Below, piece by piece: positions 16,046 to 63,393 of a stretch of DNA of 64,000 nucleotides; within the stretch, counting starts at the first letter, position 1, and each line of letters begins with the position of its first letter. The position numbers and the translations under genes were made by a program. The notes under the pieces were generated by a model, which had not been told where the DNA came from, made no database searches, and saw only the letters and a list, made by a program, of their open reading frames with translations. The stretch lies in assembly GCA_030837625.1 (NCBI GenBank), contig JAUPKF010000001.1, positions 23,496 to 87,495 on the forward strand, read 5' to 3'. Source of the DNA: Patescibacteria group bacterium (GTDB taxonomy: Bacteria > Patescibacteriota > Minisyncoccia > Moranbacterales > UBA2206).

Positions 16046-16483
16046 AGTCAGTACGAGTTGCAGCATGCGAATAGCGCACTACGAACGCGCCCATGCGAAT
16101 AATAATTATTGAAAAAACAGCAGTAATTAAAAAGCGACACAACCTTTGAAAACACTTGTAACAAAAATACATCTTTGCGTGTAATATGATTGCATGCAGG
16201 GATGTGTTTTTTTGCTTGCCCCGTGCGAGCGTAGCGAGTTTACGGGGTTCGTGAAAGGCAAGAACTTTGACAATTTAATGAAATATAGTCTAAATCTTTA
16301 TTGGTTCGAGATCCCTCGACTCGTCCGACGATTACGTCGAACTCGCTCGGGATGTGATTTCGTGGCCAAATCAAAGATTTGGACGAAATCACAATTTTTT
16401 GCGATTAGTCCTCGTCCCGCTTCGGCGGGACAAATAGAGTCTATTCAAAATCAAGAATTTATATTCTTTATATAACATTTTTT

Positions 16484-16523
<40 letters not shown>

Positions 16524-16977
16524 GATAAGGCATGCAAGTCGCATGGGTTAGACCCATGGCAAACGGGTTAGTAATACATAGGAACGTACCCCTAAGTCGT
16601 GAATAACCTGGAGAAATCCAGGATAATACACGATATGTTCTACGGAATAAAGATTTACCCCGCACCAAATGCTTGTGCAATTTGGTTGCGACTAAATGTT
16701 AAAGTTGTACTTTTGAAGTACGAACATTTGGTGCGGGGTTTATCGCTTAGGGAGCGGCCTGTGTCCTATCAGCTTGTTGGTGAGGTAAAGGCTCACCAAG
16801 GCTATGACGGGTAGGGGGCGTGAGAGCGTGACCCCCAACATTGGAACTGAGACACTGTCCAAACACCTACGGGTGGCTGCAGTCGAGAATATTCCACAAT
16901 GGACGAAAGTCTGATGGAGCGACGCCGCGTGCGGGAAGAAGGCCCTTGGGTTGTAAACCGCTTTTAATCGGGAAGAA

Positions 16978-17337
16978 ATTGTGTCTCACTATTGTTTGGT
17001 GAAAAAATGTTATGTTTCTTTTTATCTTTTTGATTGAGAGGAGGTAAAAGATGAGCTTGTCAGGAAATTATATTTATGAGGTTCAAGCAGAATATCCTGT
17101 CGAATGCTACACTTGTTCCGGCAGAGAGGACAAGGATGAATGTAGAAAAAGGCGACGAGAAACCCAGCTCAAAATACGTGACAGCTTCATTTTTGTTCCC
17201 AAGAGAGAATGCTCTTGCCGGGCAAAACTTCCGTATCCCCTTCATAAAGGAGAGTAGCGATGCGGGATTGCGGAACCTCGCGGTCTCGCAATCTCAATTC
17301 TTAAAGTAAAAATTACAAAACAATAGTGAGGCACAAT
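16978..17337 (+). other. Intervening sequence 1 in the 16S gene, about 360 bp, in the V3 region (E. coli roughly 455-480). It is bracketed by a 17-nt inverted repeat and contains a 68-aa Cys-rich ORF at 17051-17257.
   Basis: Conserved 16S sequence stops at 'gggaagaa' and resumes at 'ttgacggtaccg'. The insert begins 'attgtgtctcactattg' and ends 'caatagtgaggcacaat', which are exact reverse complements. The internal ORF 'MSLSGNYIYEVQAEYPVECYTCSGREDKDEC...' has a plausible 'gaggaggtaaaagATG' ribosome-binding site. Confidence 0.7.
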
Positions 17338-18008
17338 TTGACGGTACCGATTGAATAAGAGGTTGCTAACTCTGTGCCAGCAGCAGCGGTAATACAGAGA
17401 CCTCAAGCGTTATCCGGATTTATTGGGCGTAAAGAGCATGTAGGCGGATATGTTAGTCAGACGTCAAATCTTCGAGCTTAACTCGAAAACTGCGTTTGAA
17501 ACGGCATATCTTGAGGAAGTGAGAGATCAATGGAACGTATGGTGTAGCAGTGAAATGCGTTGATATCATACGGAACACCAAAGGCGAAGGCATTTGATTG
17601 GCACTTTTCTGACGCTGAGATGCGAAAGCGTGGGTAGCGAATGGGATTAGATACCCCAGTAGTCCACGCCGTAAACGATGCATACTAGGTATTAGGAGAA
17701 TCGACCCTCCTAGTGTCCAAGCTAACGCGATAAGTATGCCGCCTGGGAAGTACGAGCGCAAGCTTAAAACTCAAAGGAATAGACGGGGATCCGCACAAGT
17801 GGTGGAGCATGTGGTTTAATTCGACACTAAGCGAGGAACCTCACCAGGGCTTGAAACCTAGCTGCATTGTATGGAAACATACAAGCCTTCGAGGGTGCTA
17901 GGCAGGCGTTGCACGGTCGTCGTCAGCTCGTGCCGTAAGGTGTTCTGTTAAGTCAGGAAACGAGCGCAACCCCTATCGCGTGTTACAAGTGTCACGCGAG
18001 ACTGCCCA

Positions 18009-18133
18009 GAACTTTGGGCGTTAGCCCAAAGTAGTAGCATGTATCATGTAGAATGTATTATGTATGCAATTTTATACATTATACTTCCTACAAAATACTT
18101 TATACTACTTTGTGAGCGATAGCGAACAAAGTT
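18009..18133 (+). other. Intervening sequence 2 in the 16S gene, about 125 bp, between the 'gagactgcccag' and 'tgggaggaaggcgggg' blocks (E. coli roughly 1130-1140).
   Basis: AT-rich insert flanked by the inverted repeat 'gaactttg' ... 'caaagttc'. The insert opens with its own hairpin 'ctttgggcgttagcccaaag'. Confidence 0.6.
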
Positions 18134-18854
18134 CTGGGAGGAAGGCGGGGATGACGTCAGATCAGCGTGGCCCTTTGACGCCCTGGGCAACACACGTGCT
18201 ACAATGGCCGAGACAAAGGGTTGCCAAGCCGCAAGGCGGAGCTAATCCCAAAAACTCGGTCTCAGTTCGGATTGAGGTCTGCAACTCGACCTCATGAAGC
18301 CGGAATCACTAGTAATCGTGAATCAGCTATGTCACGGTGAATACGTTCTCGGATCTTGTACTCACCGCCCGTCATACCAAGAGAGTCGGTAATACCCGAA
18401 GATCACGTTTCAAAGCGTGAGCCACGGTAGGATCGATAATAAGGGTAAAGTCGTAACAAGGCATCCGTAGGGGAACCTGTGGATGGATCACCTCCTTTCT
18501 AGGGAGAATTTGGTAATAACCGAGAGTACTTCACGTTAAGACGCATAGGGTCAAACCTAGCGTTGTGAAGTATGGTTGTTATCCGCTGGTCGACCCCGAT
18601 GCAAATCGGGGAACAGCAATGCCTAACAGAGCTAACAGAATCTGTAGTAAGTTTTGTACAGCTTACGGTAAACTCTTATAGGACTAATCGCAAAAAATTG
18701 GGATACTATAAAATGAAAACACCTTGAATGGTGTTTTTGTCGTTTTCTCCTTGGGAATGGTTCATTCGGTTGACTGACCTGGCATAAAAATGTTAGCTTT
18801 TAGTTGGGCAGAACTTTGACATATAAATGCGTTATTAGATGAGGGAGGCAGTTT

Positions 18855-19816: not shown

Positions 19817-20608
19817 TTGGAAAAAGTAGGTATTTTTATGCAAACGAATTTTGACCTAAGATTAGCGAATGATTATACCAGCTCATCACAAAAGATTAAG
19901 GTGATGAGTGAGAATTGGGTTGGAAAGAATACTTTTTGTCCTGCGTGCGGTTCGGCAGTTAGGCATTTTGAAAATAATCGTCCGGTGGCTGATTTTTATT
20001 GCGATGATTGTAAAGAGGAATATGAGCTCAAAAGCAAGAAAGATTCAATGGGAACAAAAATCGTAGATGGAGCCTATCGGACGATGATAGAAAGGTTGAA
20101 AAGTGACAATAATCCCAACTTCTTTTTTCTGAATTATGACTTGAAAAATTTTGTGGTTATGAATTTTCTGGTTATACCGAAACATTTTTTTATTCCGGAG
20201 ATAATTGAAAAAAGAAAACCGCTTTCTGTGAATGCGCGGCGGGCCGGCTGGGTTGGATGTAATATTTCCCTTCTAAATATCCCGCAGACAGGCAAAATAT
20301 TTTACATTAAAGACGGAAAAGTTGAAACTAAGAAAGATGTGCTGTTTGGTTGGCAGAAAACTTTGTTTTTGCGGGAAGAGAAACAAACTGATGCGAAGGG
20401 TTGGCTTCTGGACACAATGAATTGCATAGACAAAATTGGCAAAGCGGAGTTTACTCTTGATGAGGTGTATGCTTTTGAAAAAGGATTGAAAGAAAAGCAC
20501 CCGGATAATAACTTTGTAAAAGACAAATTGCGCCAACAATTGCAGGTTTTACGCGACAAAAACTACTTGGAATTTGTGTCGCGTGGGCGTTATAGATTGG
20601 CGATTTGA
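19817..20608 (+). CDS. DpnI-like, Dam-replacing family, methyl-directed type IIM restriction endonuclease.
   Basis: Shares signature blocks with S. pneumoniae DpnI as recalled from memory: 'CPACG...HFENNRPVADFYC', 'DGAYRTMIERL..DNNPNFFFLNY', 'RKPLSVNARRAGWVGCNI', 'EFTLDEVYAFE' and 'LRQQLQVLRDKNYLEF..RGRYR'. The last block is the C-terminal winged-helix region. Confidence 0.8.
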   Translation: MEKVGIFMQTNFDLRLANDYTSSSQKIKVMSENWVGKNTFCPACGSAVRHFENNRPVADFYCDDCKEEYELKSKKDSMGTKIVDGAYRTMIERLKSDNNPNFFFLNYDLKNFVVMNFLVIPKHFFIPEIIEKRKPLSVNARRAGWVGCNISLLNIPQTGKIFYIKDGKVETKKDVLFGWQKTLFLREEKQTDAKGWLLDTMNCIDKIGKAEFTLDEVYAFEKGLKEKHPDNNFVKDKLRQQLQVLRDKNYLEFVSRGRYRLAI

Positions 20609-28551: not shown

Positions 28552-28564
28552 CCCGCCTTGCGGG

Positions 28565-28662
28565 AAATTCCAAATTCAAAATCGCAAATTCCAAATAAAT
28601 TCAAAGTAACAATAACAAATTTTTGGATTTTGGGCTTGGGATTTTGTAATTTGGATTTTCAA
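28565..28662. repeat. AT-rich imperfect palindromic intergenic element, family C copy 2.
   Basis: 'ccaaattcaaaatcgcaaattccaaataaattcaaag ... ctttgaa-like tttttggattttgggcttgggattttgtaatttggatttt'. It shares motifs with 2651-2785. Confidence 0.5.
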
Positions 28663-28666
28663 GTGA

Positions 28667-30664: not shown

Positions 30665-30786
30665 GTTTCTAATTTTCAATTTCTAATTTCTAAACAATTT
30701 CCAATTTTCCAATGACCGAATTTAAAAATTGAAAAATTAAATCATTGAAAATTGTTTGAAAATTGAAAATTGTGAATTGAAAATTA
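30665..30786. repeat. AT-rich imperfect palindromic intergenic element (family C-like, 'aattttcaat' motif) between scpA and scpB.
   Basis: Left 'aattttcaatttctaatttctaaacaatttccaattttccaatg' and right 'cattgaaaattgtttgaaaattgaaaattgtgaattgaaaatt' are near reverse complements. Confidence 0.55.
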
Positions 30787-30792
30787 TATTTT

Positions 30793-32426: not shown

Positions 32427-32528
32427 CGCGATGCGAATCTACGAATGCATGCGAATCTACGAATTTGCGAATGATACGAATTAGTAGATTCGTGAATTCG
32501 GATACATTCGTAGATTCGAATCGGATTT
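32427..32528. repeat. Imperfect palindromic intergenic element, family B ('cgaatctacgaat'/'attcgtagattcg'), copy 1.
   Basis: 'gcgaatctacgaatgcatgcgaatctacgaatttgcgaatgatacgaat tagtag attcgtgaattcggatacattcgtagattcgaatcgg'. Confidence 0.6.
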
Positions 32529-32532
32529 ATTT

Positions 32533-33717: not shown

Positions 33718-34776
33718 ATGAGAATCATACAAGACGCGGAGGTTGCAGGCAAAAAAGTTATTTTCAGGGTAGGGTTTGATGTTTCGGTTGAGAACGGGCA
33801 TGCGAAAGAAACTTTTAAGATTTCTACGGTTAAAAAAACTTTGGATTATCTCATGGATAAGGGCGCTAAAGTGGCGCTTATGACTTGGTTGGGACGTCCC
33901 GGCGGGAAAAAGGACTTGAAGTTTTCTCTGGGTCAGATTAAAGGTGATATAGAAAATATTTTAGGCTATAAAATAAGGTTCGTGCCGGATTGTGTTGGCG
34001 GAGAAGTGAATAACGCTATGGATAATTTAGCTCCTGGCGAAGTGGCGCTTTTGGAGAATGTTAGGTTTTATGGCGAGGAGGGGGATGAAAAGGGCGAAGG
34101 GTATGGTGATGACTTTGCCCGCAAATTAACCGAAGGTTTTGATATCTTGGTAAGTGACGCTTTTAGCCAGTCTCATAGGAACCAAGCTTCGATTGCGGGA
34201 ATGCCTAAGTTCATCTCAAGCTGCGCCGGATTTCTGATGCAAAAAGAAATTTCGGAAATGGAAAAGATAAAAAACAATTTCGCGCGGCCGGCGGTGGCGA
34301 TAATCGGCGGGGCGAAAATTGAGACCAAGTTGCCGGTGATCAAATTCTTCGAGGAAAAATACGATTATGTTTTGGTGGGGGGGAAAATAGCTAATGAAGC
34401 GCTGGATCGAAATATTAAATTTAGCGAAAAAGTAATTTTGCCGGTAGATTTCATTGATGACAGATTAGATGTCGGACCAAAAACCATAGATAAATTTACG
34501 GAAATTATCAAGTCGGCCAAAACGATTGTTTGGAACGGTCCGACGGGAAAGTTCGAAGAAGAAAAGTATGCTGTCAGCACCAACGCGGTTTTGAAGGCTG
34601 TTTTGACTTCCGGCGCCTACACGGTTGTTGGCGGAGGAGAAACGCTGGAAGTGCTGGAGAAAAACAACGCTTTGGATAAAATTTCGTTTGTTTCCACCGG
34701 TGGTGGAGCGATGCTGGAATATTTGGGTGGTGGGAAAATGCCGGGAGTGGAATGCCTGAAATCACATAACACATAA
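33718..34776 (+). CDS. pgk: Phosphoglycerate kinase (compact, 352 aa). Its C-terminus and stop are encoded by the 'acataac' heptamer repeat.
   Basis: N- and C-terminal domain motifs ('RVGFDV', 'LLENVRFY.EE', 'AIIGGAKI', 'STGGGAMLEYLGG'). Confidence 0.9.
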   Translation: MRIIQDAEVAGKKVIFRVGFDVSVENGHAKETFKISTVKKTLDYLMDKGAKVALMTWLGRPGGKKDLKFSLGQIKGDIENILGYKIRFVPDCVGGEVNNAMDNLAPGEVALLENVRFYGEEGDEKGEGYGDDFARKLTEGFDILVSDAFSQSHRNQASIAGMPKFISSCAGFLMQKEISEMEKIKNNFARPAVAIIGGAKIETKLPVIKFFEEKYDYVLVGGKIANEALDRNIKFSEKVILPVDFIDDRLDVGPKTIDKFTEIIKSAKTIVWNGPTGKFEEEKYAVSTNAVLKAVLTSGAYTVVGGGETLEVLEKNNALDKISFVSTGGGAMLEYLGGGKMPGVECLKSHNT

Positions 34777-34786
34777 CACATAACAC
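34763..34786. repeat. Tandem heptanucleotide repeat 'cacataa/acataac', about 3.5 units, supplying the pgk stop codon.
   Basis: 'cacataacacataacacataacac'. Unit length 7, so TAA appears in all three frames. Confidence 0.6.
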
Positions 34787-34790
34787 GAAT

Positions 34791-36047
34791 ATGTCGAAGA
34801 TCAAAAAAATTTACGCGCGGGAGATTTTGGATTCGAGGGGGAATCCGACGGTGGAAGTGGAAATTGAATTGGAAAGCGGAATAAAAGCGACAGCGGCGGT
34901 GCCGAGTGGGGCGTCAACGGGAAAACACGAGTCATTGGAACTTCGCGACAAAGATGCCGAGCGCTATAATGGGCTGGGGGTTTTGCGGGCGGTGGAAAAT
35001 GTGAATGAGAAAATAGCGGAAGCGGTTTGTGGAATGGAGGCGGGCGGGCAGAAAGAAATCGATGAAAAAATGATCGAGTTGGACGGTACGGAGAATAAAT
35101 CCAATTTAGGCGCCAACGCTATTTTGGGCGTATCTTTGGCGACGGCGCGCGTGGCGGCGTTGGAACAGAATTTGCCCCTTTACGGCTACATTGCCAAAGC
35201 CTATAAAATGCCTTCCAAAAAATTCAAGCTTCCTATCCCGATGTTTAACATTATTAACGGCGGCCAACACAGCGATTCGGGACTTTCTATTCAGGAATAT
35301 AAAATTGTTCCGGCGGGGATAAAATCATTCAAGGAACAACTGCGCGCCGGATCCGAAATTTTTCATAAGCTGGCGGAAATTTTGAAAGAAAGCGGCTATA
35401 GCGTGTCGGTCGGGGACGAGGGAGGGTTCGCGCCCAAGTTGGAAAGCAACGCTCAAGCCCTGGAGCTGATAAATTTAGCCATTGAAAAATCCGGATACGA
35501 AAAAGGAAAGGAAGTCAGTATCGGCATTGACGCGGCGGCTAACTCATTTTTTGACGAAGACGAGAATAAATATATCTTCAAACCGGAAAACGCCAATCTT
35601 ACCCGCGAAATGCTGGTGAATATTTACAGCGAGTGGATAGAGAAATACCACGTTATTTCGGTGGAAGACGGGCTGGCGGAAGAAGACTGGGAAGGCTGGA
35701 GCGCCATGAATGAAAAGTTGGGCGGACGGATTATGCTTATCGGCGATGATCTTTTGGTGACTAACGTTAAACGGTTAAAAACGGCGATTGAAAGAAAAGC
35801 TTGCAACTCAGTTCTCATCAAAGTCAACCAAATCGGGACGCTTTCGGAAACGATCGATTGCATAAAGTTGGCCAAAAAGAATGGCATGAAAACCGTCATC
35901 TCGCACCGCTCGGGAGAAACAACTGATGATTTTATCTCCGACTTGGCGGTCGGAACCGGCGCAGATTATATGAAATCCGGCTCGCTGTCGCGCGGAGAAA
36001 GGATTTGCAAGTATAATAGGTTGTTGAGGATTGAGGAGGAAATTTAG
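34791..36047 (+). CDS. eno: Enolase.
   Basis: 'IYAREILDSRGNPTVEVE', 'SGASTG' and 'SHRSGETTD'. Confidence 0.95.
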   Translation: MSKIKKIYAREILDSRGNPTVEVEIELESGIKATAAVPSGASTGKHESLELRDKDAERYNGLGVLRAVENVNEKIAEAVCGMEAGGQKEIDEKMIELDGTENKSNLGANAILGVSLATARVAALEQNLPLYGYIAKAYKMPSKKFKLPIPMFNIINGGQHSDSGLSIQEYKIVPAGIKSFKEQLRAGSEIFHKLAEILKESGYSVSVGDEGGFAPKLESNAQALELINLAIEKSGYEKGKEVSIGIDAAANSFFDEDENKYIFKPENANLTREMLVNIYSEWIEKYHVISVEDGLAEEDWEGWSAMNEKLGGRIMLIGDDLLVTNVKRLKTAIERKACNSVLIKVNQIGTLSETIDCIKLAKKNGMKTVISHRSGETTDDFISDLAVGTGADYMKSGSLSRGERICKYNRLLRIEEEI

Positions 36048-36049
36048 TA

Positions 36050-36226
36050 AATTCACCTAATTTACCTAATTACCTAATTTACCTAATAAAATTCCAAAAT
36101 AACCAAAGGTCAAATAAAATTCCTAATACCAAATTTGAAAATTATTTTATTCAGTATTTGACCTTTCATTTTGCTATTTGAAATTATTGAATTTTATTAG
36201 GTGAATTAGAAATTAGGTGAATTAGA
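36050..36226. repeat. Family A roughly 180-bp palindromic intergenic element, 'cacctaatt' type, copy 1 of 5.
   Basis: Termini 'aattcacctaatttacctaattacctaatttacctaat' and 'attaggtgaattagaaattaggtgaatt' are inverse. Inner inverted repeat 'aaccaaaggtcaaataaaatt' / 'atttgacctttcatttt'. It begins directly at the eno stop codon. Confidence 0.8.
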
Positions 36227-36275
36227 AATTTGGGAAGACTGTTAATTTCACAGAAGCTAATTGCATTGCAGAACA

Positions 36276-38875: not shown

Positions 38876-39289
38876 ATGAAAATTGGCATAATAGGTTCAA
38901 TGCAGTTTACTGACAAAATGGTTGAGGTCAAGGCGGATCTTATAAAATTGGGACATGATGCGTTTATTACGGACTTGCATAAAACCATGATTGGAAAAAC
39001 AGATGAAGAGATTGAACAAATCAAACTTCATCAAAAGTATAATATGGATGCGATTCGTGAGTTTTGAAATGCTATGCAGGGAGCGGACGCTGTCCTTGTT
39101 TTGAATTTTGATAAAAATGGCGTCAAAAATTATGTTGGTGGAAATACCCTCATGGAAATCGGTTTTGCCCATGTTTTGAATCAAAAAATATTTATGTGGA
39201 ATCCAGTACCGGATATGCCATATTGCAAAACAGAAATTGAAGCCGTCAAGCCGGTTATCATTGATGGAGATTTAGTAAAAATAGCCTAA
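38876..39289 (+). pseudogene. Nucleoside 2-deoxyribosyltransferase-like protein interrupted by a single in-frame TGA at 39065-39067.
   Basis: ORFs 38876-39067 and 39074-39289 are in the same frame. 'MKIGIIGSMQF...' plus '...ADAVLVLNFDKNG...GGNTLMEIGFAHVLNQKIFMW' together resemble one nucleoside deoxyribosyltransferase-like fold. Confidence 0.5.
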
Positions 39290-43521: not shown

Positions 43522-43718
43522 ATTCACCTAATTGTCTAATTCACCTAATTTCTAATGAAATGTCCAATAAACAAAGGCTAAATAAAATTAATAATGCAAA
43601 ATTCAAAATTTAAAAAAAGTTCTCTTTATTAGAAATTAGACATTAGAAATTTTATTTTGCTATTTGAAATTGTTTAATTTTATTAGGTGAATTAGAAATT
43701 AGGTGAATTAGGTGAATT
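43521..43718. repeat. Family A palindromic intergenic element, copy 2, immediately upstream of the first MacAB-type operon.
   Basis: 'aattcacctaattgtctaattcacctaatttctaat ... ttattaggtgaattagaaattaggtgaattaggtgaatt'. Confidence 0.8.
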
Positions 43719-43727
43719 TCAAAACAA

Positions 43728-45952: not shown

Positions 45953-46789
45953 CCCCCCACCAATTCCAAAGAAAGATTAAATAATCAGAAGGATTATGGC
46001 ACGGAATCGTCTAGCGGCTCGAATTTTTCTTATTCTGAGTCAGGTGAGAGAATTGGTAGGGGGCAAGGCGCGTTAATCCAAGTTCAAAATCTCTGCAAGA
46101 CTTACGATAACGAAGGCGTGAAGACGGCGGCGATGTGCGGCGCGAGTTTTGTTATTGGAAAGGGTGAGTTTGTTTCGATAATGGGGCCGAGCGGGAGCGG
46201 GAAATCGACGCTGATGCAGATTTTGGGAATGCTGGACCGGCCGACGGAGGGGAAATATTTTTTCGAAGGGAAAGATACTTTCGGTTTTGACGATGACACG
46301 CTGGCGGGAATCCGCAACAAAAAAATCGGGTTTGTTTTTCAGTCGTTCAATTTGCTTCCAAGAACTTCGGTCTATGAAAATGTGGAGTTGCCGTTGCTTT
46401 ATGATTCCAAGCCGGACGGGCAGAACAGGAAAAAAGTTATGGACGCGCTCCTGGCGGTTGGGATGGAACATCGGGAGAAATATCTTTCCAATCAACTCTC
46501 CGGCGGGGAAAAACAACGGGTGGCGATCGCGCGGGCTTTGGTCAACAATCCGGACGTGGTTTTTGCCGACGAGCCGACGGGAAATTTGGATTCCAAATCC
46601 GGTCTTCAGGTAATGAAAATTTTACAAAAATTAAATAACGACGGACATACTATAATTTTGGTGACTCACGAGACTTACACTGCCGAGCACGCCGAGAGGA
46701 TACTTTATATGAAAGACGGACAGATTGTTGCTGATGATCCGGTGAGGAATCGGAGGATGGCGGATGGAGAAAGCGAGCTTTTGAAATAA
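45941..46789 (+). CDS. ABC transporter ATP-binding protein (MacB/LolD-type) with an unusual, roughly 50-aa Ser/Gly-rich N-terminal extension.
   Basis: Walker A 'GPSGSGKST', Q-loop, signature '[15 protein letters not shown]', Walker B '[11 protein letters not shown]' and H-loop 'LVTHE'. Confidence 0.85.
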
Positions 46790-46966
46790 TTCACCTAATT
46801 CACCTAATTTCTAATTCACCTAATAAAATTCTACAAGGCCAAATAGCAAAATAAAATTTCTAACGTCTAATAAGGATTTTTGAATTTTACATTATGAATT
46901 TTTATTTACCCTTTAGTTATTGGACATTTTATTAGAAATTAGGTGAATTAGGTAATTAGGTGAATT
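46788..46966. repeat. Family A palindromic intergenic element, copy 3.
   Basis: 'taattcacctaattcacctaatttctaattcacctaat ... attagaaattaggtgaattaggtaattaggtgaatt'. It starts at the ATPase stop codon. Confidence 0.8.
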
Positions 46967-47000
46967 TTCAGAATGATGAACTAGAAAATCGGTATTTATT

Positions 47001-48248
47001 ATGCGTTTCATCGATCCTATCAAAATCTCCTACAAAAATCTTTTGGCCGCGAAATTGCGGTCGTTTTTAACAATCCTGGGGATTATTATTGGCGTAGGTT
47101 CGGTAGTCACTATTATGTCTATCGGGCAGGGCGCCCAGGCTTTGATTTTGGACCAGGTGAGCGGAATCGGATCGAATCTGATCGGCATTATGCCGGGAGC
47201 GAGTGATGAAAATGGTCCGCCGGCCGCGGCCATCGGGATAATCGTGACGACTTTGAAATATGATGATCTGGAAGCCATTCGAAATGGACGGAACGTTCCG
47301 GAAGTGGAGGACGCGGCCGGATACGTCACTGGAACAGCCCAGGCAATCTATGAGGGAAATACTTTGGTGGCGTCTTTTACCGGAACAACTGCCAGCTATA
47401 TCAATGTTGAAAATACGGAAGTGCTCGAGGGGCGTTTTATCAGCAAAGAAGAAGAAACCGATTTGTCCCGGGTGGCGGTGGTGGGAAAAAATATTGTGAA
47501 GGATTTGTTCTTCGGCGAAGACCCTGTCGGAAAGACGGTGAAAATCAAAGACCAAAGTTTCGAAGTGGTTGGAGTTTTCAAGGAGCGGGGTTCATCAGGA
47601 TTTGGCACATCCAGTCAGGACGATTCGATTTTCGTTCCCTTGCGAACGGCTCAAAAGTTGCTTTTGGGAATCGACCATATCGCCTATATCCGCGCCAAAG
47701 CCAAGGATACGAATGTCATTTCTTTCGCCATTGCCAATATCGAAGTCACGCTTCGCGAACGCCACGGGATAGCTGATCCGGCCGACGACGATTTTTCCGT
47801 GCGCGACCAAGCGCAGGCGTTGGAGCTTATCAAGAATATTACCGACGTTTTGCGATATTTTCTTTTGGCGATCGGTACGATATCTTTGGCGGTGGGCGGA
47901 GTGGGAATTATGAACACTATGCTGATCGTGGTTAACCAACGGATACGAGAAGTGGGCCTGCGAAAAGCAGTGGGGGCGAAAACCGCCGACATTCTTACGC
48001 AATTTTTGATCGAGTCGGCGGCCGTTTCTTTTCTGGGCGGAGCGGCGGGAATAATCTTGGGCGCAGTTTTGTCTTATATTATATATCTGGTTATGCAGGC
48101 TCTTCAGTACAGCTGGCCCTTTGTGGTCACCTGGCAGTCCATCGCGGTGGCGGCTTTGGTTTCCATTGGAATCGGCTTGTTGTTTGGAATGTATCCCGCC
48201 CGCAAAGCTTCGCGGATCAGTCCGATGGAAGCGCTGCGTTATGAATAA
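47001..48248 (+). CDS. ABC transporter permease with an FtsX-like/MacB periplasmic domain, four transmembrane helices.
   Basis: N-terminal transmembrane segment 'LRSFLTILGIIIGVGSVVTIMSIGQGA', a large periplasmic domain, and a C-terminal FtsX 3-TM bundle ending 'YPARKASRISPMEALRYE'. Confidence 0.85.
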   Translation: MRFIDPIKISYKNLLAAKLRSFLTILGIIIGVGSVVTIMSIGQGAQALILDQVSGIGSNLIGIMPGASDENGPPAAAIGIIVTTLKYDDLEAIRNGRNVPEVEDAAGYVTGTAQAIYEGNTLVASFTGTTASYINVENTEVLEGRFISKEEETDLSRVAVVGKNIVKDLFFGEDPVGKTVKIKDQSFEVVGVFKERGSSGFGTSSQDDSIFVPLRTAQKLLLGIDHIAYIRAKAKDTNVISFAIANIEVTLRERHGIADPADDDFSVRDQAQALELIKNITDVLRYFLLAIGTISLAVGGVGIMNTMLIVVNQRIREVGLRKAVGAKTADILTQFLIESAAVSFLGGAAGIILGAVLSYIIYLVMQALQYSWPFVVTWQSIAVAALVSIGIGLLFGMYPARKASRISPMEALRYE

Positions 48249-48425
48249 TTCACCTAATTGTCTAATTACCTAATTCACCTAATAAAAAGTAAAATAACCA
48301 AAGGTCAAATAAAATTTCTAATGCCAAATTCAAAAATTATTTTTATTTAGCATTTGACATTTCATTTTGCTATTTGAAATTGTTGAATTTTATTAGGTGA
48401 ATTAGAAATTAGGTGAATTAGGTAA
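48247..48425. repeat. Family A palindromic intergenic element, copy 4.
   Basis: 'taattcacctaattgtctaattacctaattcacctaat ... ttattaggtgaattagaaattaggtgaattaggtaatt'. Confidence 0.8.
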
Positions 48426-48432
48426 TTTTTTT

Positions 48433-51760: not shown

Positions 51761-51802
51761 TAAATTCGGGATTATCTTGTATAAGGGTAAAACTGATTTA
51801 TT

Positions 51803-51953
51803 AAATTCACCTAATTGTCTAATTACCTAATTCACCTAATAAAAATTAAAATAACCAAAGGTCAAATAAAAAATTTGGTATTTAGCATCTGACCTTTTGT
51901 TTTGCTATTTTGCCTTTTGAATTTTATTAGGTGAATTAGAAATTAGGTGAATT
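51803..51953. repeat. Family A palindromic intergenic element, copy 5, slightly shorter.
   Basis: 'aattcacctaattgtctaattacctaattcacctaat ... ttattaggtgaattagaaattaggtgaatt'. Confidence 0.75.
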
Positions 51954-52040
51954 TGGAATTTGAATGTAATTTTTAACGCGTAATTTGTTATTGTGGCAAT
52001 GACTTAATGTGCTGCAAAAAGCGAATTAGAATAAAATATT

Positions 52041-54404: not shown

Positions 54405-54505
54405 AAACGCGATTCGAATCAACGAATGCATCCGAATTTACGAATAGGATAAAAAAGTATTCGTAGATTTGTAGATTCGGATTGATTCGCAGATTCGCAT
54501 CGGTC
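54405..54505. repeat. Imperfect palindromic intergenic element, family B copy 2.
   Basis: 'gcgattcgaatcaacgaatgcatccgaatttacgaatag ... tattcgtagatttgtagattcggattgattcgcagattcgcatcg'. Confidence 0.6.
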
Positions 54506-54507
54506 TT

Positions 54508-54948
54508 ATGAAGATTTACAAACAAAAAATTAACATCGAAAGCCAAAGCCAGATCGAGTTCATAGATATTACGGACAAAGTAGATGAAGTGATTTCAAAG
54601 TCCGGAATCAGAGAAGGGCAAGTATTGATTTACTCTCCGCACACGACTGCATCAGTGTCGGTTAATCACAATGAATCTATGTTGGTTCAGGATTTTATGC
54701 GGACGCTTTATCGCTTGGTGCCTGTTTCCGACCGCTACTCGCATGATCTTTTCGAGCTCAATCGCGCCAAGGCTTCCGACGGACGAAGTAACGGGCATTC
54801 TCATTGTAAAGTGTTGCTTTTAGGCGTCAGCGAAACCGTTCCTATTGAAAAGGGGAAAATGATGCTTACGGAAAGACAAAGCGTCTTTTTTGTCGAAACA
54901 GACGGCGCCAGAAAGAGGGACGTGATTGTTCAAGTGTTGGGACTGTAA
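54508..54948 (+). CDS. YjbQ/UPF0047-family protein (secondary thiamine-phosphate synthase-like).
   Basis: 'LIYSPHTTASVSVNHNE' and 'HSHCKVLLLG' match the UPF0047 signature regions. Confidence 0.75.
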   Translation: MKIYKQKINIESQSQIEFIDITDKVDEVISKSGIREGQVLIYSPHTTASVSVNHNESMLVQDFMRTLYRLVPVSDRYSHDLFELNRAKASDGRSNGHSHCKVLLLGVSETVPIEKGKMMLTERQSVFFVETDGARKRDVIVQVLGL

Positions 54949-54991
54949 CGCGTAACGTATAACGTATAGTGAAAATTAGAAATTCAGTTAA

Positions 54992-59969: not shown

Positions 59970-60110
59970 GTTTAGAAAGAAGCCTTGGGTAAGAATTCCC
60001 TGATTTTTCAGGGAATTTTTACTTATTTTTTGCGCAAACGCAAATATTCCCTTATCTCCACGTATGTAGTACTATTGAAAGATGGATCGAAATTGTTTAA
60101 AAATAACCAA

Positions 60111-61307
60111 ATGAAAAAGAAGAAGCAACTTGTTGCCGCTGCGGCTGTTTTACTGTTGGCGGGAGGATACTATTGGTACGACCAAAGCGGTTCGACTGAA
60201 AAAAAGGTTCGCTACGCGACCGCGGAAGCGGAGAAAGGGGCGCTTGCCAGCTCTATCTCAGCCAGCGGAAACGTTATTGTTGACAATCAATCGACTGTCG
60301 ATCCGACTATAACCGGAACGGTGGCGGATTTGTCGGTGAAAGTCGGAGACAAAGTGGAAAAAGGGCAGTTTCTTTTTAACATCGTTAACAACGATTTGAG
60401 TGTGAGCGTTTCCAAAGCGGCGGCTTCCTATGAATCGGCCAAGAATTCTCTCGAGTCGGCCAAAATCGACAAAGACAGCGCCAAGGCGGCTTATGAAAAA
60501 GCCAAAGACGAGGATGATGACGACGATGACGCCTACACGGGGAGAGAGTTGGATGTATTGAAGGATAAAGTGGACTTAGCAGAATCGAAAATAATTCAGG
60601 CGGAAAAGAGCTTGGCGGCCAGCGGGGCGGATTTTGGAAATGCGCGTACGGACGCTGCCGAGAGAAAGGTGGTTTCCGCCATATCAGGGACAGTGCTGGG
60701 AGTGAATGTTAAAAACGGCGATGATTTGAGTCGGACGTCTTCAGTCGATAACGCCAGCGCGCCGATAATAATCGGAGAAATAGAAACACTGAAAGCCGAG
60801 GTGGAAGTGAACGAAGTGGATATTGCCAAAGTGGCGATCGGGCAGAAAGTAACGATTGAAATGGACGCTTTGGACGGAGTGAATTTTTTCGGTAAAGTGG
60901 AAAAGATTGATTCGCTGGGAACCGTTTCGCAGGGAGTGGTCAGTTATAACGTTACTGTCGGATTCGATTCGCTGGATGCCAGAATCAAGCCGGATATGAC
61001 TGTTTCCGCCTCCATTATCACCGATGAAAAACAGGACGTTTTGAAAGTTCCAAGCAGCGCGGTAAAAACTGAAAACAATGCTTTTTATGTTGAAATCTTA
61101 GTCAAGGGTTCTCCGCAAAAGAGAGATGCGGCGGTTGGCATTTCCAACGGCGCGGAAACGGAAATCACGAGCGGTCTGGCGGCTGGCGATAAGGTGATAA
61201 CGGAAACAATTGACGTAAGCGGAGAAGAATCGAGCAGTTCTGGTTCAAGCGCAAGAAATTCCGGCGGCAATGTCAGAATTCCGGGAGTGGGAGGATTTGG
61301 AAGGTAA
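60111..61307 (+). CDS. HlyD-family periplasmic adaptor (MacA-like) of the second efflux operon.
   Basis: Transmembrane anchor 'LVAAAAVLLLAGG', a lipoyl-like domain, a coiled-coil hairpin, a beta-barrel, and an acidic 'DEDDDDDD' insert. Confidence 0.85.
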   Translation: MKKKKQLVAAAAVLLLAGGYYWYDQSGSTEKKVRYATAEAEKGALASSISASGNVIVDNQSTVDPTITGTVADLSVKVGDKVEKGQFLFNIVNNDLSVSVSKAAASYESAKNSLESAKIDKDSAKAAYEKAKDEDDDDDDAYTGRELDVLKDKVDLAESKIIQAEKSLAASGADFGNARTDAAERKVVSAISGTVLGVNVKNGDDLSRTSSVDNASAPIIIGEIETLKAEVEVNEVDIAKVAIGQKVTIEMDALDGVNFFGKVEKIDSLGTVSQGVVSYNVTVGFDSLDARIKPDMTVSASIITDEKQDVLKVPSSAVKTENNAFYVEILVKGSPQKRDAAVGISNGAETEITSGLAAGDKVITETIDVSGEESSSSGSSARNSGGNVRIPGVGGFGR

Positions 61308-61408
61308 GAACTCGCGAAATCAGAGCGAATGATAGCGAATTAAAGCTAATAAAATTAGAAATTCGCTCTCATTGGCTGACATTCGCTCCGCTTTCGCGAG
61401 TAATATTT

Positions 61409-62107
61409 ATGATTGAATGCGATAATCTTACTAAAATATATAAAAACGGCGATGTGGAGACGGCGGCGTTGAAAGGCGTTTCTTTCAAGATAGAAAAGGG
61501 AGAGTTTGTTTCCATTATCGGGCCGTCGGGATCGGGAAAATCAACCCTTATGCATATACTGGGGGCGCTCGACACGCCGACCGCGGGAAGCTATGTTTTC
61601 GACGGGAAAGACATTTCACGGTTCAGCGACGACGAGCTTTCCGATTTTAGGCGCGATAAAATCGGTTTTGTCTTTCAGTCGTTTAATCTTCTTCCCAGGA
61701 CAACCGTCATGCGCAACGTTATGTTGCCGCTGGTTTATTCCGGAAAAACAATGGAAGACCGGGAGAAGAAAGCGCGCGCGTGTCTTCTCCAGGCCGGAAT
61801 GGAAGAGAATAAATTTGGAAACTTGTCCAATCAACTCTCCGGCGGTCAAATGCAAAGAGTGGCAATCGCTAGGTCGCTTATCAATAACCCGTCAATTATT
61901 CTGGCGGACGAACCGACCGGAAATCTGGACACCAAAACCAGTCGCACGGTTATGGAAGCTTTTGCGGAGCTTAACCGGCAAGGACATACCGTGATTCTTA
62001 TCACCCACGAGATGGATGTAGCGGGTTATGCCAAAAGAATAATTCATGTTCGGGATGGAATGATAGAGAGCGATGTAACACATAATAACATAACACATAA
62101 CACATAA
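61409..62107 (+). CDS. ABC transporter ATP-binding protein (MacB/LolD-type). Its C-terminus 'THNNITHNT' and its stop are encoded by the 'acataac' repeat.
   Basis: Walker A 'GPSGSGKST', signature 'LSGGQMQRVAIARSL', Walker B '[11 protein letters not shown]' and H-loop 'ITHE'. Confidence 0.9.
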   Translation: MIECDNLTKIYKNGDVETAALKGVSFKIEKGEFVSIIGPSGSGKSTLMHILGALDTPTAGSYVFDGKDISRFSDDELSDFRRDKIGFVFQSFNLLPRTTVMRNVMLPLVYSGKTMEDREKKARACLLQAGMEENKFGNLSNQLSGGQMQRVAIARSLINNPSIILADEPTGNLDTKTSRTVMEAFAELNRQGHTVILITHEMDVAGYAKRIIHVRDGMIESDVTHNNITHNT

Positions 62108-62133
62108 CACATAACACATAACACATAACACAT
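62077..62133. repeat. Tandem heptanucleotide repeat 'acataac', about 8 units.
   Basis: 'aacacataataacataacacataacacataacacataacacataacacataacacatgg'. Confidence 0.7.
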
Positions 62134-62154
62134 GGAACTTTAGGAGGTTGTTTC

Positions 62155-63393
62155 ATGTTGCGTGTTTCATGTTTCATGCTAGCTGATTTATTAAAAGAAG
62201 TTTTTTGGTCTTTGTCTGGCAATAAAGTCAGGTCTGGTTTGACGATTTTGGGCATTGTTATAGGGATTGCTTCGGTAATAGTTATGGTGGCAATTGGGCA
62301 GGGAGCCAAAGCATCGGTCACATCCAGCATCGAGTCGATTGGATCTAATCTTATTATGATAATGCCCGGTTCGCAGCGGGTAGGCGGGGTCAGCCAGGGT
62401 GGAGGCAGTTCGGAAACGCTGACTGAAGAAGATGCCGATGCTATCAAAAACCAAATTTCCAACGCGAAAGCGGTGGCTCCGGCGGTAACCGGACGCTATC
62501 AGATAACCGCCAAAGGAAACAATGCCAATACTCAGGTGGTGGGAACCGTGGCCGATTATGCAGTCGTGCGAAACGTAAGCATGTCTTCCGGATCGTTTTT
62601 TTCCGAATCGCAAATAAGAAGTTCGGCTAAAGTCGCGATTCTCGGTCCGGACACGAGAGACGAGCTTTTCGGCGAAAACGTGAGTCCGGTCGGACAAAAT
62701 ATCAGAATAAACAAGATAGAATTTTTGGTGATCGGTGTGGCCAAATCTAAAGGAGGATCCGGATTTAATAATCAAGACGATATAATTTATGTTCCGCTGA
62801 CATCGGCGCAACATTATCTTTCCGGAAACGACTACGTCAACAATATCAGTGTTACGGCCGCCGATCAGGATTCCATGGCTTCGGTGCAGAGCCAAATTAC
62901 CAAGTTGCTTCTTAGTCGCCATAAAATTACCGACTCGGCGCAGGCGGATTTCAGCATAATGAATCAAAATGATATCATATCCACCGCCTCAAGTGTAACA
63001 GGCACTTTTACGATTCTGCTTTCATCCATCGCCGGCATCTCGCTTCTCGTTGGCGGAATCGGTATTATGAATATGATGCTTACGACTGTCACCGAGCGGA
63101 CGCGTGAAATCGGGCTTCGAAAAGCGGTAGGGATAAAGAAAATGTATATCAACTTGCAATTTCTTGCCGAGGCGGTCGCCTTGACTTTTCTAGGAGGAAT
63201 GTTGGGAATAATATTGGGGTGGCTGGCGTCGCTTTTGGTGACGAAATTTGTCAGCAGTTTGACGACGGAAGTTTCCTTATCGTCGATTCTGTTGGCTTTC
63301 GGGGTATCGACGGCAATCGGAATAATTTTCGGGTTTTATCCCGCCCGCCGGGCGGCGAATCTTAGCCCGATTGAAGCGTTGAGATATGAGTGA
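62155..63393 (+). CDS. ABC transporter permease (FtsX-like/MacB-type).
   Basis: Strong SD 'aggagg' 7 nt upstream. Transmembrane-periplasmic domain-3TM architecture. The C-terminus is 'YPARRAANLSPIEALRYE'. Confidence 0.85.
   Translation: MLRVSCFMLADLLKEVFWSLSGNKVRSGLTILGIVIGIASVIVMVAIGQGAKASVTSSIESIGSNLIMIMPGSQRVGGVSQGGGSSETLTEEDADAIKNQISNAKAVAPAVTGRYQITAKGNNANTQVVGTVADYAVVRNVSMSSGSFFSESQIRSSAKVAILGPDTRDELFGENVSPVGQNIRINKIEFLVIGVAKSKGGSGFNNQDDIIYVPLTSAQHYLSGNDYVNNISVTAADQDSMASVQSQITKLLLSRHKITDSAQADFSIMNQNDIISTASSVTGTFTILLSSIAGISLLVGGIGIMNMMLTTVTERTREIGLRKAVGIKKMYINLQFLAEAVALTFLGGMLGIILGWLASLLVTKFVSSLTTEVSLSSILLAFGVSTAIGIIFGFYPARRAANLSPIEALRYE

Follow-up and report, generated by a model that had tools for sequence, protein, structure and literature searches.

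The 64,000-nucleotide (nt) stretch analysed here (the window, meaning the whole stretch at this length) comes from contig JAUPKF010000001.1 of a Patescibacteria group bacterium and holds two genes that end inside tandem arrays of the heptanucleotide ACATAAC. One is pgk, which encodes phosphoglycerate kinase and is followed by the enolase gene eno; the other encodes a MacB/LolD-type ABC (ATP-binding cassette) ATPase and is followed by a MacB-type permease gene. Arrays were detected with Tandem Repeats Finder and gene identities were assigned with Pfam; coordinates are collected in Table 1. The pgk array covers the final 4 codons of the gene, the stop codon and 10 of the spacer's 14 bases, falling 4 nt short of the enolase ATG, and gives Pgk an array-encoded C-terminus (...ECLKSHNT*). 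The ABC array, imperfect at 62076-62087 and a perfect (ACATAAC)x6.6 at 62088-62133, takes in the ATPase stop codon and the 9-10 codons before it, then runs on for 26 nt more, and the ATPase ends in ...VTHNNITHNT*. The heptamer arrays thus genuinely provide the stop codons and final residues of both genes, including the common HNT tail, as an earlier reading of the DNA without database searches (the sequence-only reading) had claimed.

That reading had also pointed to a related motif after a YjbQ-like gene, and an array is indeed there: the UPF0047 gene stops at the first TAA of the array's TAAC-type units, and Tandem Repeats Finder reports the array as (TAACGTA)x2.3, period 7, at 54953-54968. 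When the window was scanned for at least two units of NNNTAAC, exactly these three sites were returned, 3/3 on the + strand and 3/3 overlapping a stop codon. The 14-mer ACATAACACATAAC occurs 7 times, compared to 0.03 expected from dinucleotide-preserving shuffles. The genes downstream of the three arrays (enolase, the permease and an uncharacterised open reading frame, ORF) share no function.

That the arrays are an assembly or sequencing artefact is scarcely credible. The same sequences are reproduced identically in the NCBI metagenome-assembled genome (MAG) contig and in two Logan assemblies, and other genomes contain at least 117 arrays of the kind. Logan L001 has the same array length as the window. 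Logan contig L002 terminates within the ABC array, which might speak for an artefact, but a contig break there would be expected behaviour if the repeat exceeds the assembler k-mer.

C-terminal tails, structure and translation starts at the arrays

The tails follow from simple arithmetic. Frame reading confirmed the earlier proposal that a 7-nt unit containing TAA brings a stop in all frames within three units, and reading into a pure ACATAAC array can yield only the tails T*, HNT* or ITHNT*. The HNT common to both proteins is thus a forced outcome and no evidence of a link between the pgk and ATPase genes. The reverse strand of the array has no stops (VMCYVLC...) and abundant ATG, GTG and TTG. 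In simulations of unit number, the Pgk tail stayed constant at two or more units and the ATPase tail at three or more; the protein was altered only when the array fell to one unit (pgk) or to two or fewer (ATPase). Since the tail is set by the entry frame, unit number gives no graded or switch-like output, and the expectation that repeat-length changes would alter C-terminal length proved wrong. Collapse to one unit in silico (34763-34786; 62088-62133) was a strong change, yielding in-frame Pgk-enolase and ATPase-permease fusions; that the fusion is in frame at both loci is probably a coincidence, with a chance of about 1 in 9.

Judged by homology, both array-encoded tails fall in unconserved protein ends. 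The SHNT tail makes Pgk 2-4 residues longer than most homologues, which finish ...PGIEALK plus 0-2 amino acids. For the ATPase, the match to solved structures ends near residue 223; beyond it those proteins likewise carry 5-9 extra residues, usually unconserved, and the array-coded THNNITHNT stands in their place.

A hairpin partner for the two window arrays was sought by folding both strands and by comparing duplexes with shuffles, and was rejected, as no pairing was significant. The fold of 34750-34800 around the pgk array was not significant (z +0.89), and that of 62070-62185 was no better than shuffles (+ strand minimum free energy -16 kcal/mol, z +0.58; - strand z -0.42). The flanks of the pgk array contain no complementary partner (duplex versus shuffle, z 0.1 downstream and 0.9 upstream), and the duplex of the ABC array with its flank (-14.5 kcal/mol, z -1.0) was not significant. 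No promoter-like site, no intrinsic-terminator-like site (G+C-rich stem-loop plus U tract) and no Rfam covariance-model match coincides with either window array. A Rho rut site was dismissed by inspection, the unit having no YC dinucleotide, as were a DnaA box, the ACATAAC unit mismatching TTATNCACA, and a -1 frameshift slippery site, the unit not being X XXY YYZ.

The arrays lie in a genome that is poor in Shine-Dalgarno (SD) motifs, as in the phyla where the TAACTGA repeats discussed below were described. An SD-like motif (GGAG/GAGG/AGGA, 4-18 nt upstream) precedes only 4 of the 43 ATG-start genes in the window, although the 16S rRNA ends in CACCTCCTTT. Among the 43 genes, only two have a less structured start region than eno. 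Unlike eno, the permease start has an SD, AGGAGG (62142-62147), between array and ATG; a small local helix, CAUGGAAC/GUUUCAUG, holds this SD in its loop and pairs the first AUG. Downstream of the ABC array come GGAACTTTAGGAGGTTG and then a second, G/T-rich heptamer array, (TGTTTCA)x4.3, within the 5' end of the permease gene, with ATGs at 62155 and 62176 (mutually in frame) and also at 62169. The permease begins with MLRVSCF, a 7-residue repeat-coded N-terminal extension, as indicated by the solved stand-alone permease 5xu1_M, whose alignment begins at query residue 13. The (TGTTTCA) array is a degenerate counterpart of the GTTAYGY/GTTCCAT 3' arms found in relatives, and the ATPase-permease junction has had both of its gene ends invaded by heptamer arrays. 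The pgk array stands alone; the ABC array keeps only this degenerate partner, the one that invaded the permease 5' end.

ACATAAC arrays in public genomes and close relatives

Scanned for (ACATAAC)x3, species-representative genomes yielded at least 117 loci; the counts that follow are among the matches listed, 45 of which were labelled as Patescibacteria lineages. The remaining matches came from Flavobacteria, Saprospiraceae, Desulfonema, Lyngbya and others, with the array often within compound heptamer arrays. The arrays are sense-oriented with respect to their flanking genes (upstream 72:25, downstream 70:23, p about 1e-6; downstream gene starts at public loci are unreliable, as the G/T arm is stop-free and start-rich), and in Patescibacteria upstream co-orientation was 33:6. 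Anchoring to stop codons is well above chance: of 44 Patescibacteria arrays, 24-26 run over a co-oriented stop or begin no more than 5 nt away from one, compared to the 3.8-6.3 of 44 that random placement in the permitted non-coding space predicts to be flush with a stop. The association with gene 3' ends thus extends beyond the window, and the recurrence there noted from the sequence alone is upheld. A strong downstream complementary arm of GTTAYGY/GTTCCAT heptamers accompanies 17 of 47 Patescibacteria arrays, and an upstream one none of the 47. The arrays have a preferred phase, with a CACATAA start in 21/47 and a CATAACA end in 31/47.

Orthologous array pairs retain the array while their flanks fall to 74-99% identity. 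Lengths were unequal in 3 of 5 pairs (30/33, 25/31 and 46/57 nt) and equal in the others (29/29 and 24/24 nt). Viral contigs gave 27 scattered array matches. An asymmetry between the strands of the hairpins (A.C versus G.U pairs), by which the opposite strand seems to fold better, was considered as evidence of antisense RNA and rejected, being a by-product of searching with a perfect ACATAAC arm.

Several individual loci deserve mention. The CAYHIM01 contigs L009, L029, L033, L064, L082 and L119, deposited as 'uncultured Gammaproteobacteria', carry Patescibacteria-style ACATAAC/GTTAYGC hairpins. The flanks of L009 are 77-80% identical to the Patescibacteria MAG locus L056, an identity from which its Gammaproteobacteria label is probably wrong. 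In Lyngbya sp. CCAP 1446/10 (L024, 937-990, reverse strand) the ACATAAC array runs straight into a (GTCAACA)n array, which we take to be the cyanobacterial STRR3 unit CAACAGT. The compound heptamer arrays of other phyla include the units CATAACT, TATAACA, ACTGAAC and CTAACAC.

At the pgk-eno junction, arrays are gained and lost between relatives. The window's Pgk is 100% identical to a 'Patescibacteria group bacterium' MAG protein, and its next neighbours are Candidatus Moranbacteria proteins. Across 50 related loci, a conserved array at the pgk 3' end was not present; L120, which of the syntenic relatives is closest (79% DNA identity), lacks one there. Since close relatives lack the array at this junction, eno does not need one. 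A more distant relative (L200/P0032, 68% protein identity) has a degenerate ACATAAT-ACATAAC-ACGTAAC array with the same LHNT* tail, which on this comparison is an independent recurrence, and several other relatives have different period 7-9 repeats directly after the pgk stop. In an unbiased sample of 437 kb of related contigs we found no RCRTAAC arrays, and the density of period 7-9 arrays was about one third of that in the window; the flavour of the repeat is therefore genome-specific and short-lived.

The tail arithmetic and these comparisons make it very unlikely that the arrays are a frame-independent stop trap kept by selection, or a contingency locus that remodels the C-terminus, readings that develop the stop-trap and contingency ideas raised from the sequence alone. 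Stops in three frames, the enrichment at stop codons and the interspecies differences in array length would suit such roles, as would the in-frame Pgk-Eno and ATPase-permease fusions on collapse to one unit. Like contingency loci, the arrays have a unit that is not a multiple of 3 and a copy number that varies between species. The contingency idea nevertheless fails, since unit number leaves the products unchanged above the collapse threshold (at least two units for pgk, at least three for the ATPase) and slippage leaves the reading frame of the product untouched. The arrays also lie at 3' ends, whereas phase-variable repeats act in the 5' coding region or promoter, and the genes concerned are housekeeping genes. 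A selected stop trap has against it that close relatives manage without the array. Bacteria show no evidence of selecting fail-safe extra stops (PMC6764699), a result that argues against a selected trap. Neither idea brings a new mechanism. The stop-trap idea was already stated for TAACTGA repeats in PMC4679880. The sequence-only reading is right on the arithmetic and on positional recurrence, and wrong on contingency.

Origin and possible roles of the arrays

We favour, with a probability of roughly 55%, the reading that ACATAAC arrays are slippage-born heptanucleotide simple repeats that are tolerated only at gene boundaries and are at most structure-free spacers. The arrays would belong to an RCRTAAC family that resides in the spacers between same-strand Patescibacteria genes, and would arise and resize by replication slippage. 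A tolerance filter may then act on them, such that arrays persist only in the sense orientation and from the upstream stop codon onward; there the upstream protein would always be closed, gaining just T, HNT or ITHNT on an unconserved tail. The reverse orientation would cause read-through and false starts. If the frame-closing, start-free orientation is the only safe one, the sense bias would follow; likewise, as the spacers are tiny, the stretch from the stop codon onward would be the sole safe place for a 7-nt repeat. Arithmetic and comparison show that the stop overrun and the identical HNT tails are passive by-products, and a selected stop-trap function is unnecessary, as a tolerance filter suffices when the reverse orientation has no stops and many ATGs and GTGs. 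At most, the G-free array may be an unstructured intercistronic linker that keeps the next start open, which would suit an SD-poor genome; ahead of a start without an SD, such a linker could plausibly have a mild positive role.

Several points weigh against this reading. First, slippage at both window loci is inferred. Second, the arrays stay perfect as flank identity drops to 74-82%, in a comparison conditioned on both copies being perfect. Third, the gene maps at public loci, on which the orientation and anchoring counts are based, follow a crude longest-ORF rule, and taxon labels are used as deposited. Lastly, the ACATAAC heptamer, with its preferred phase and frequent inverted arm, spans many Patescibacteria classes and looks more like a shared element or recognised motif than a product of local slippage.

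The main rival to slippage under a tolerance filter takes up this last point. The arrays would be what remains of an intergenic palindrome, (RCRTAAC)n-loop-(GTTAYGY)n, REP/MITE-like and spreading or copied from spacer to spacer onto or near a TAA, of which one arm was expanded by slippage and the other eroded. We consider such an origin possible but on balance unlikely. The complementary arms found only downstream of the Patescibacteria arrays fit it, with example hairpins in L010, L079, L101 and L103, as do the preferred phase together with an A/T-rich left flank (often TAAAAT). At the ATPase-permease junction, a G/T-rich heptamer array of like style comes after the ABC array; at the pgk array, by contrast, there is no trace of a partner. 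The window is also rich in repeat-built hairpin spacers and holds a five-copy hairpin family abutting stops (described below), yet the ACATAAC element showed neither a transposase nor a target-site duplication nor a conserved core outside the repeats, and array flavours vary among related genomes, which fits local generation better.

A more speculative version, to which we give little credence, would make (RCRTAAC)n-loop-(GTTAYGY)n a phylum-wide, orientation-independent intercistronic module, in which the 5' arm provides stops and the 3' arm starts, in every frame and on both strands. If this were true, such a stop-to-start module could place the terminating ribosome at the next start, coupling termination to reinitiation in ultra-compact, SD-poor genomes, and the ACATAAC arrays would be the module's expandable arms.

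It is doubtful that the array is instead a cis-regulatory mRNA site, bound by S1, a cold-shock protein or a similar factor and tuning translation of the downstream gene. The arrays would be well placed for this, being sense-oriented and directly upstream of starts, with an unstructured leader, an eno gene lacking an SD and a genome that is SD-poor throughout. The arrays are however missing at the same junction in close relatives and from 437 kb of related genomes, the downstream genes have no common function, and no binding factor was identified. The same proposal was made for TAACTGA repeats (PMC4679880), where it is itself hypothetical.

TAACTGA heptamers are the closest described parallel to the ACATAAC arrays and occur as direct repeats in marine Beggiatoaceae, Cyanobacteria and Bacteroidetes (MacGregor 2015, PMC4679880). 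Forward TAACTGA repeats have stops in all three frames and hence overlap only ORF ends; 13 of the repeats, placed directly ahead of a gene, run over the stop of the gene before it. The TAACTGA spacers rarely contain SD sites, and the reverse strand is open for translation (PMC4679880). The ACATAAC arrays behave like these repeats, sharing a 7-nt unit with TAAC, a tandem and intergenic arrangement, sporadic occurrence across lineages, the forward orientation and three-frame stops. They differ in unit sequence and in phylum (Patescibacteria). ACATAAC arrays are also anchored to the upstream stop, and many form a hairpin arm, whereas TAACTGA repeats are reported not to be structure-forming. The window holds only three TAAC-type arrays, short of a genome-wide network in this genome. 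What is new here is the stop-codon anchoring statistics and the frequent hairpin pairing.

Other heptanucleotide repeats offer a looser comparison. Those of cyanobacteria are known as STRR (Mazel 1990). Heptamers are the most abundant class of long simple sequence repeats (SSRs), which is ascribed to polymerase slippage (Mrazek 2007, in the summaries of PMC4679880 and PMC4692102), and the heptanucleotide repeats of Calothrix PCC 7601 are cited in both of these papers. As far as these secondary accounts go, the ACATAAC arrays resemble long heptanucleotide SSRs and STRR in having a 7-nt unit, enrichment between genes, a length that varies among relatives and a presumed slippage origin. Unlike ACATAAC, neither STRR nor the Xanthomonas GGGAATC repeats are reported in these accounts to be tied to stop codons. 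G-rich heptanucleotide repeats may form quadruplexes, whereas the ACATAAC unit has no G.

In the literature searched, we found no description of intergenic tandem repeats or hairpins in the Candidate Phyla Radiation (CPR), Parcubacteria or Patescibacteria. The present arrays extend heptanucleotide intergenic repeats, earlier known in Beggiatoaceae, Cyanobacteria, Bacteroidetes and Xanthomonas, to the CPR. They also matter for annotation: odd C-terminal tails (T, HNT, ITHNT) and the N-terminal MLRVSCF in such genomes are repeat-derived, and ORF callers will misplace starts within G/T-rich arms.

Repeat-built spacers and other features of the window

The window has 44% G+C, and almost every gene lies on the + strand. 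Period 7-9 tandem arrays are concentrated between genes, with 26 of 42 in the 11.4% non-coding fraction (p = 7e-15), and many spacers consist of short-period repeats throughout, laid out as two inverted arms. Six spacers are much more stably folded than shuffled sequence, whichever strand is taken (z -2.3 to -8.9; + strand -3.6 to -7.8). They are long imperfect hairpins of period 7-9 units (AAATTCC/TTTTGGA, CGAATCTA/ATTCGTAG and others), in which the base of the helix lies 2-5 nt past the stop in 4/6 and 3-9 nt ahead of the next start in 5/6.

In addition, a dispersed element of about 180 nt is present in five copies, with 5' arms of TAATTCACC repeats, 3' arms of GGTGAATTA repeats and a conserved centre (72% mean column identity in the alignment). 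In two copies the element's first TAA doubles as the stop of the upstream gene; the remaining copies lie 0-3 nt from a stop, except the copy at 51800, which is about 40 nt downstream of one.

Table 1. Arrays, genes and structured elements of the window discussed in the text.
Feature	Position	Strand	Basis or remark
pgk, phosphoglycerate kinase gene	33718-34776	+	Pfam PGK
(CACATAA)x3.4 heptamer array	34763-34786	+	Tandem Repeats Finder, period 7, 100% matches
pgk stop codon TAA	34774-34776	+	within second repeat unit
eno, enolase gene	34791-36047	+	Pfam; no Shine-Dalgarno motif
UPF0047 (YjbQ-like) gene	54508-54948	+	Pfam; stop TAA 54946-54948
Related TAAC-type array TAACGCG-TAACGTA-TAACGTA-TAG	54946-54968	+	first TAA is the UPF0047 stop
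HlyD-type adaptor gene	59985-61307		Pfam
MacB/LolD-type ABC ATPase gene	61409-62107	+	Pfam ABC_tran
(TAACACA)x8.1 array	62076-62133	+	Tandem Repeats Finder, period 7, 92% matches
ABC ATPase stop codon TAA	62105-62107	+	inside array
Small 8-bp local helix	62131-62157	+	62131-62138 pairs with 62150-62157
(TGTTTCA)x4.3 G/T-rich heptamer array	62149-62178	+	Tandem Repeats Finder
MacB-type permease gene	62155-63393	+	Pfam MacB_PCD + FtsX
Six hairpin spacers	2651-2755, 28552-28666, 30665-30792, 32427-32532, 54405-54507, 61308-61408
Five-copy element	36048-36235, 43522-43720, 46788-46970, 48247-48430, 51800-51960

Palindromes at such positions have precedents in the REP/BIME-type extragenic palindromes and in the 'ribosome termination structures' that lie just after stops (PMC3733652; PMC7518266). 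The six spacers, none of them an ACATAAC array, and about 36% of the Patescibacteria ACATAAC arrays among the matches listed are likewise stable post-stop hairpins, starting 0-5 nt past a stop codon. Unlike REP/BIME, the pgk and ABC arrays do not fold, and the arms in relatives are tandem heptamers rather than a fixed GC-rich palindrome. The work on post-stop structures (PMC7518266) is relevant to the hairpin spacers and not to the two arrays. Repeat-built stop-to-start spacers are a more promising lead than the two arrays, and for CPR biology, spacers made wholly of period 7-9 repeat hairpins may merit study in the context of operon expression in SD-poor minimal genomes.

Other features of the window lie apart from the arrays. 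An ORF of 137 codons (38876-39289, MKIGIIGSMQF...), with no Pfam match, contains one in-frame TGA at codon 64, which is a pseudogene mutation, an error or a local recoding; an alternative genetic code was ruled out, as other window genes end in TGA. No 23S rRNA, 5S rRNA or tRNA genes were detected within the 64 kb. The 16S rRNA gene (16478-18498) measures 2,021 nt, compared to 1,533 nt for the Rfam model, with about 490 nt of insertions, and contains a heptamer-like array of its own, (GTATCAT)x4.6, at 18034-18065. Just past it, in a gene-poor stretch, lies a gene for a DpnI-family (methyl-directed) restriction endonuclease (19817-20608).

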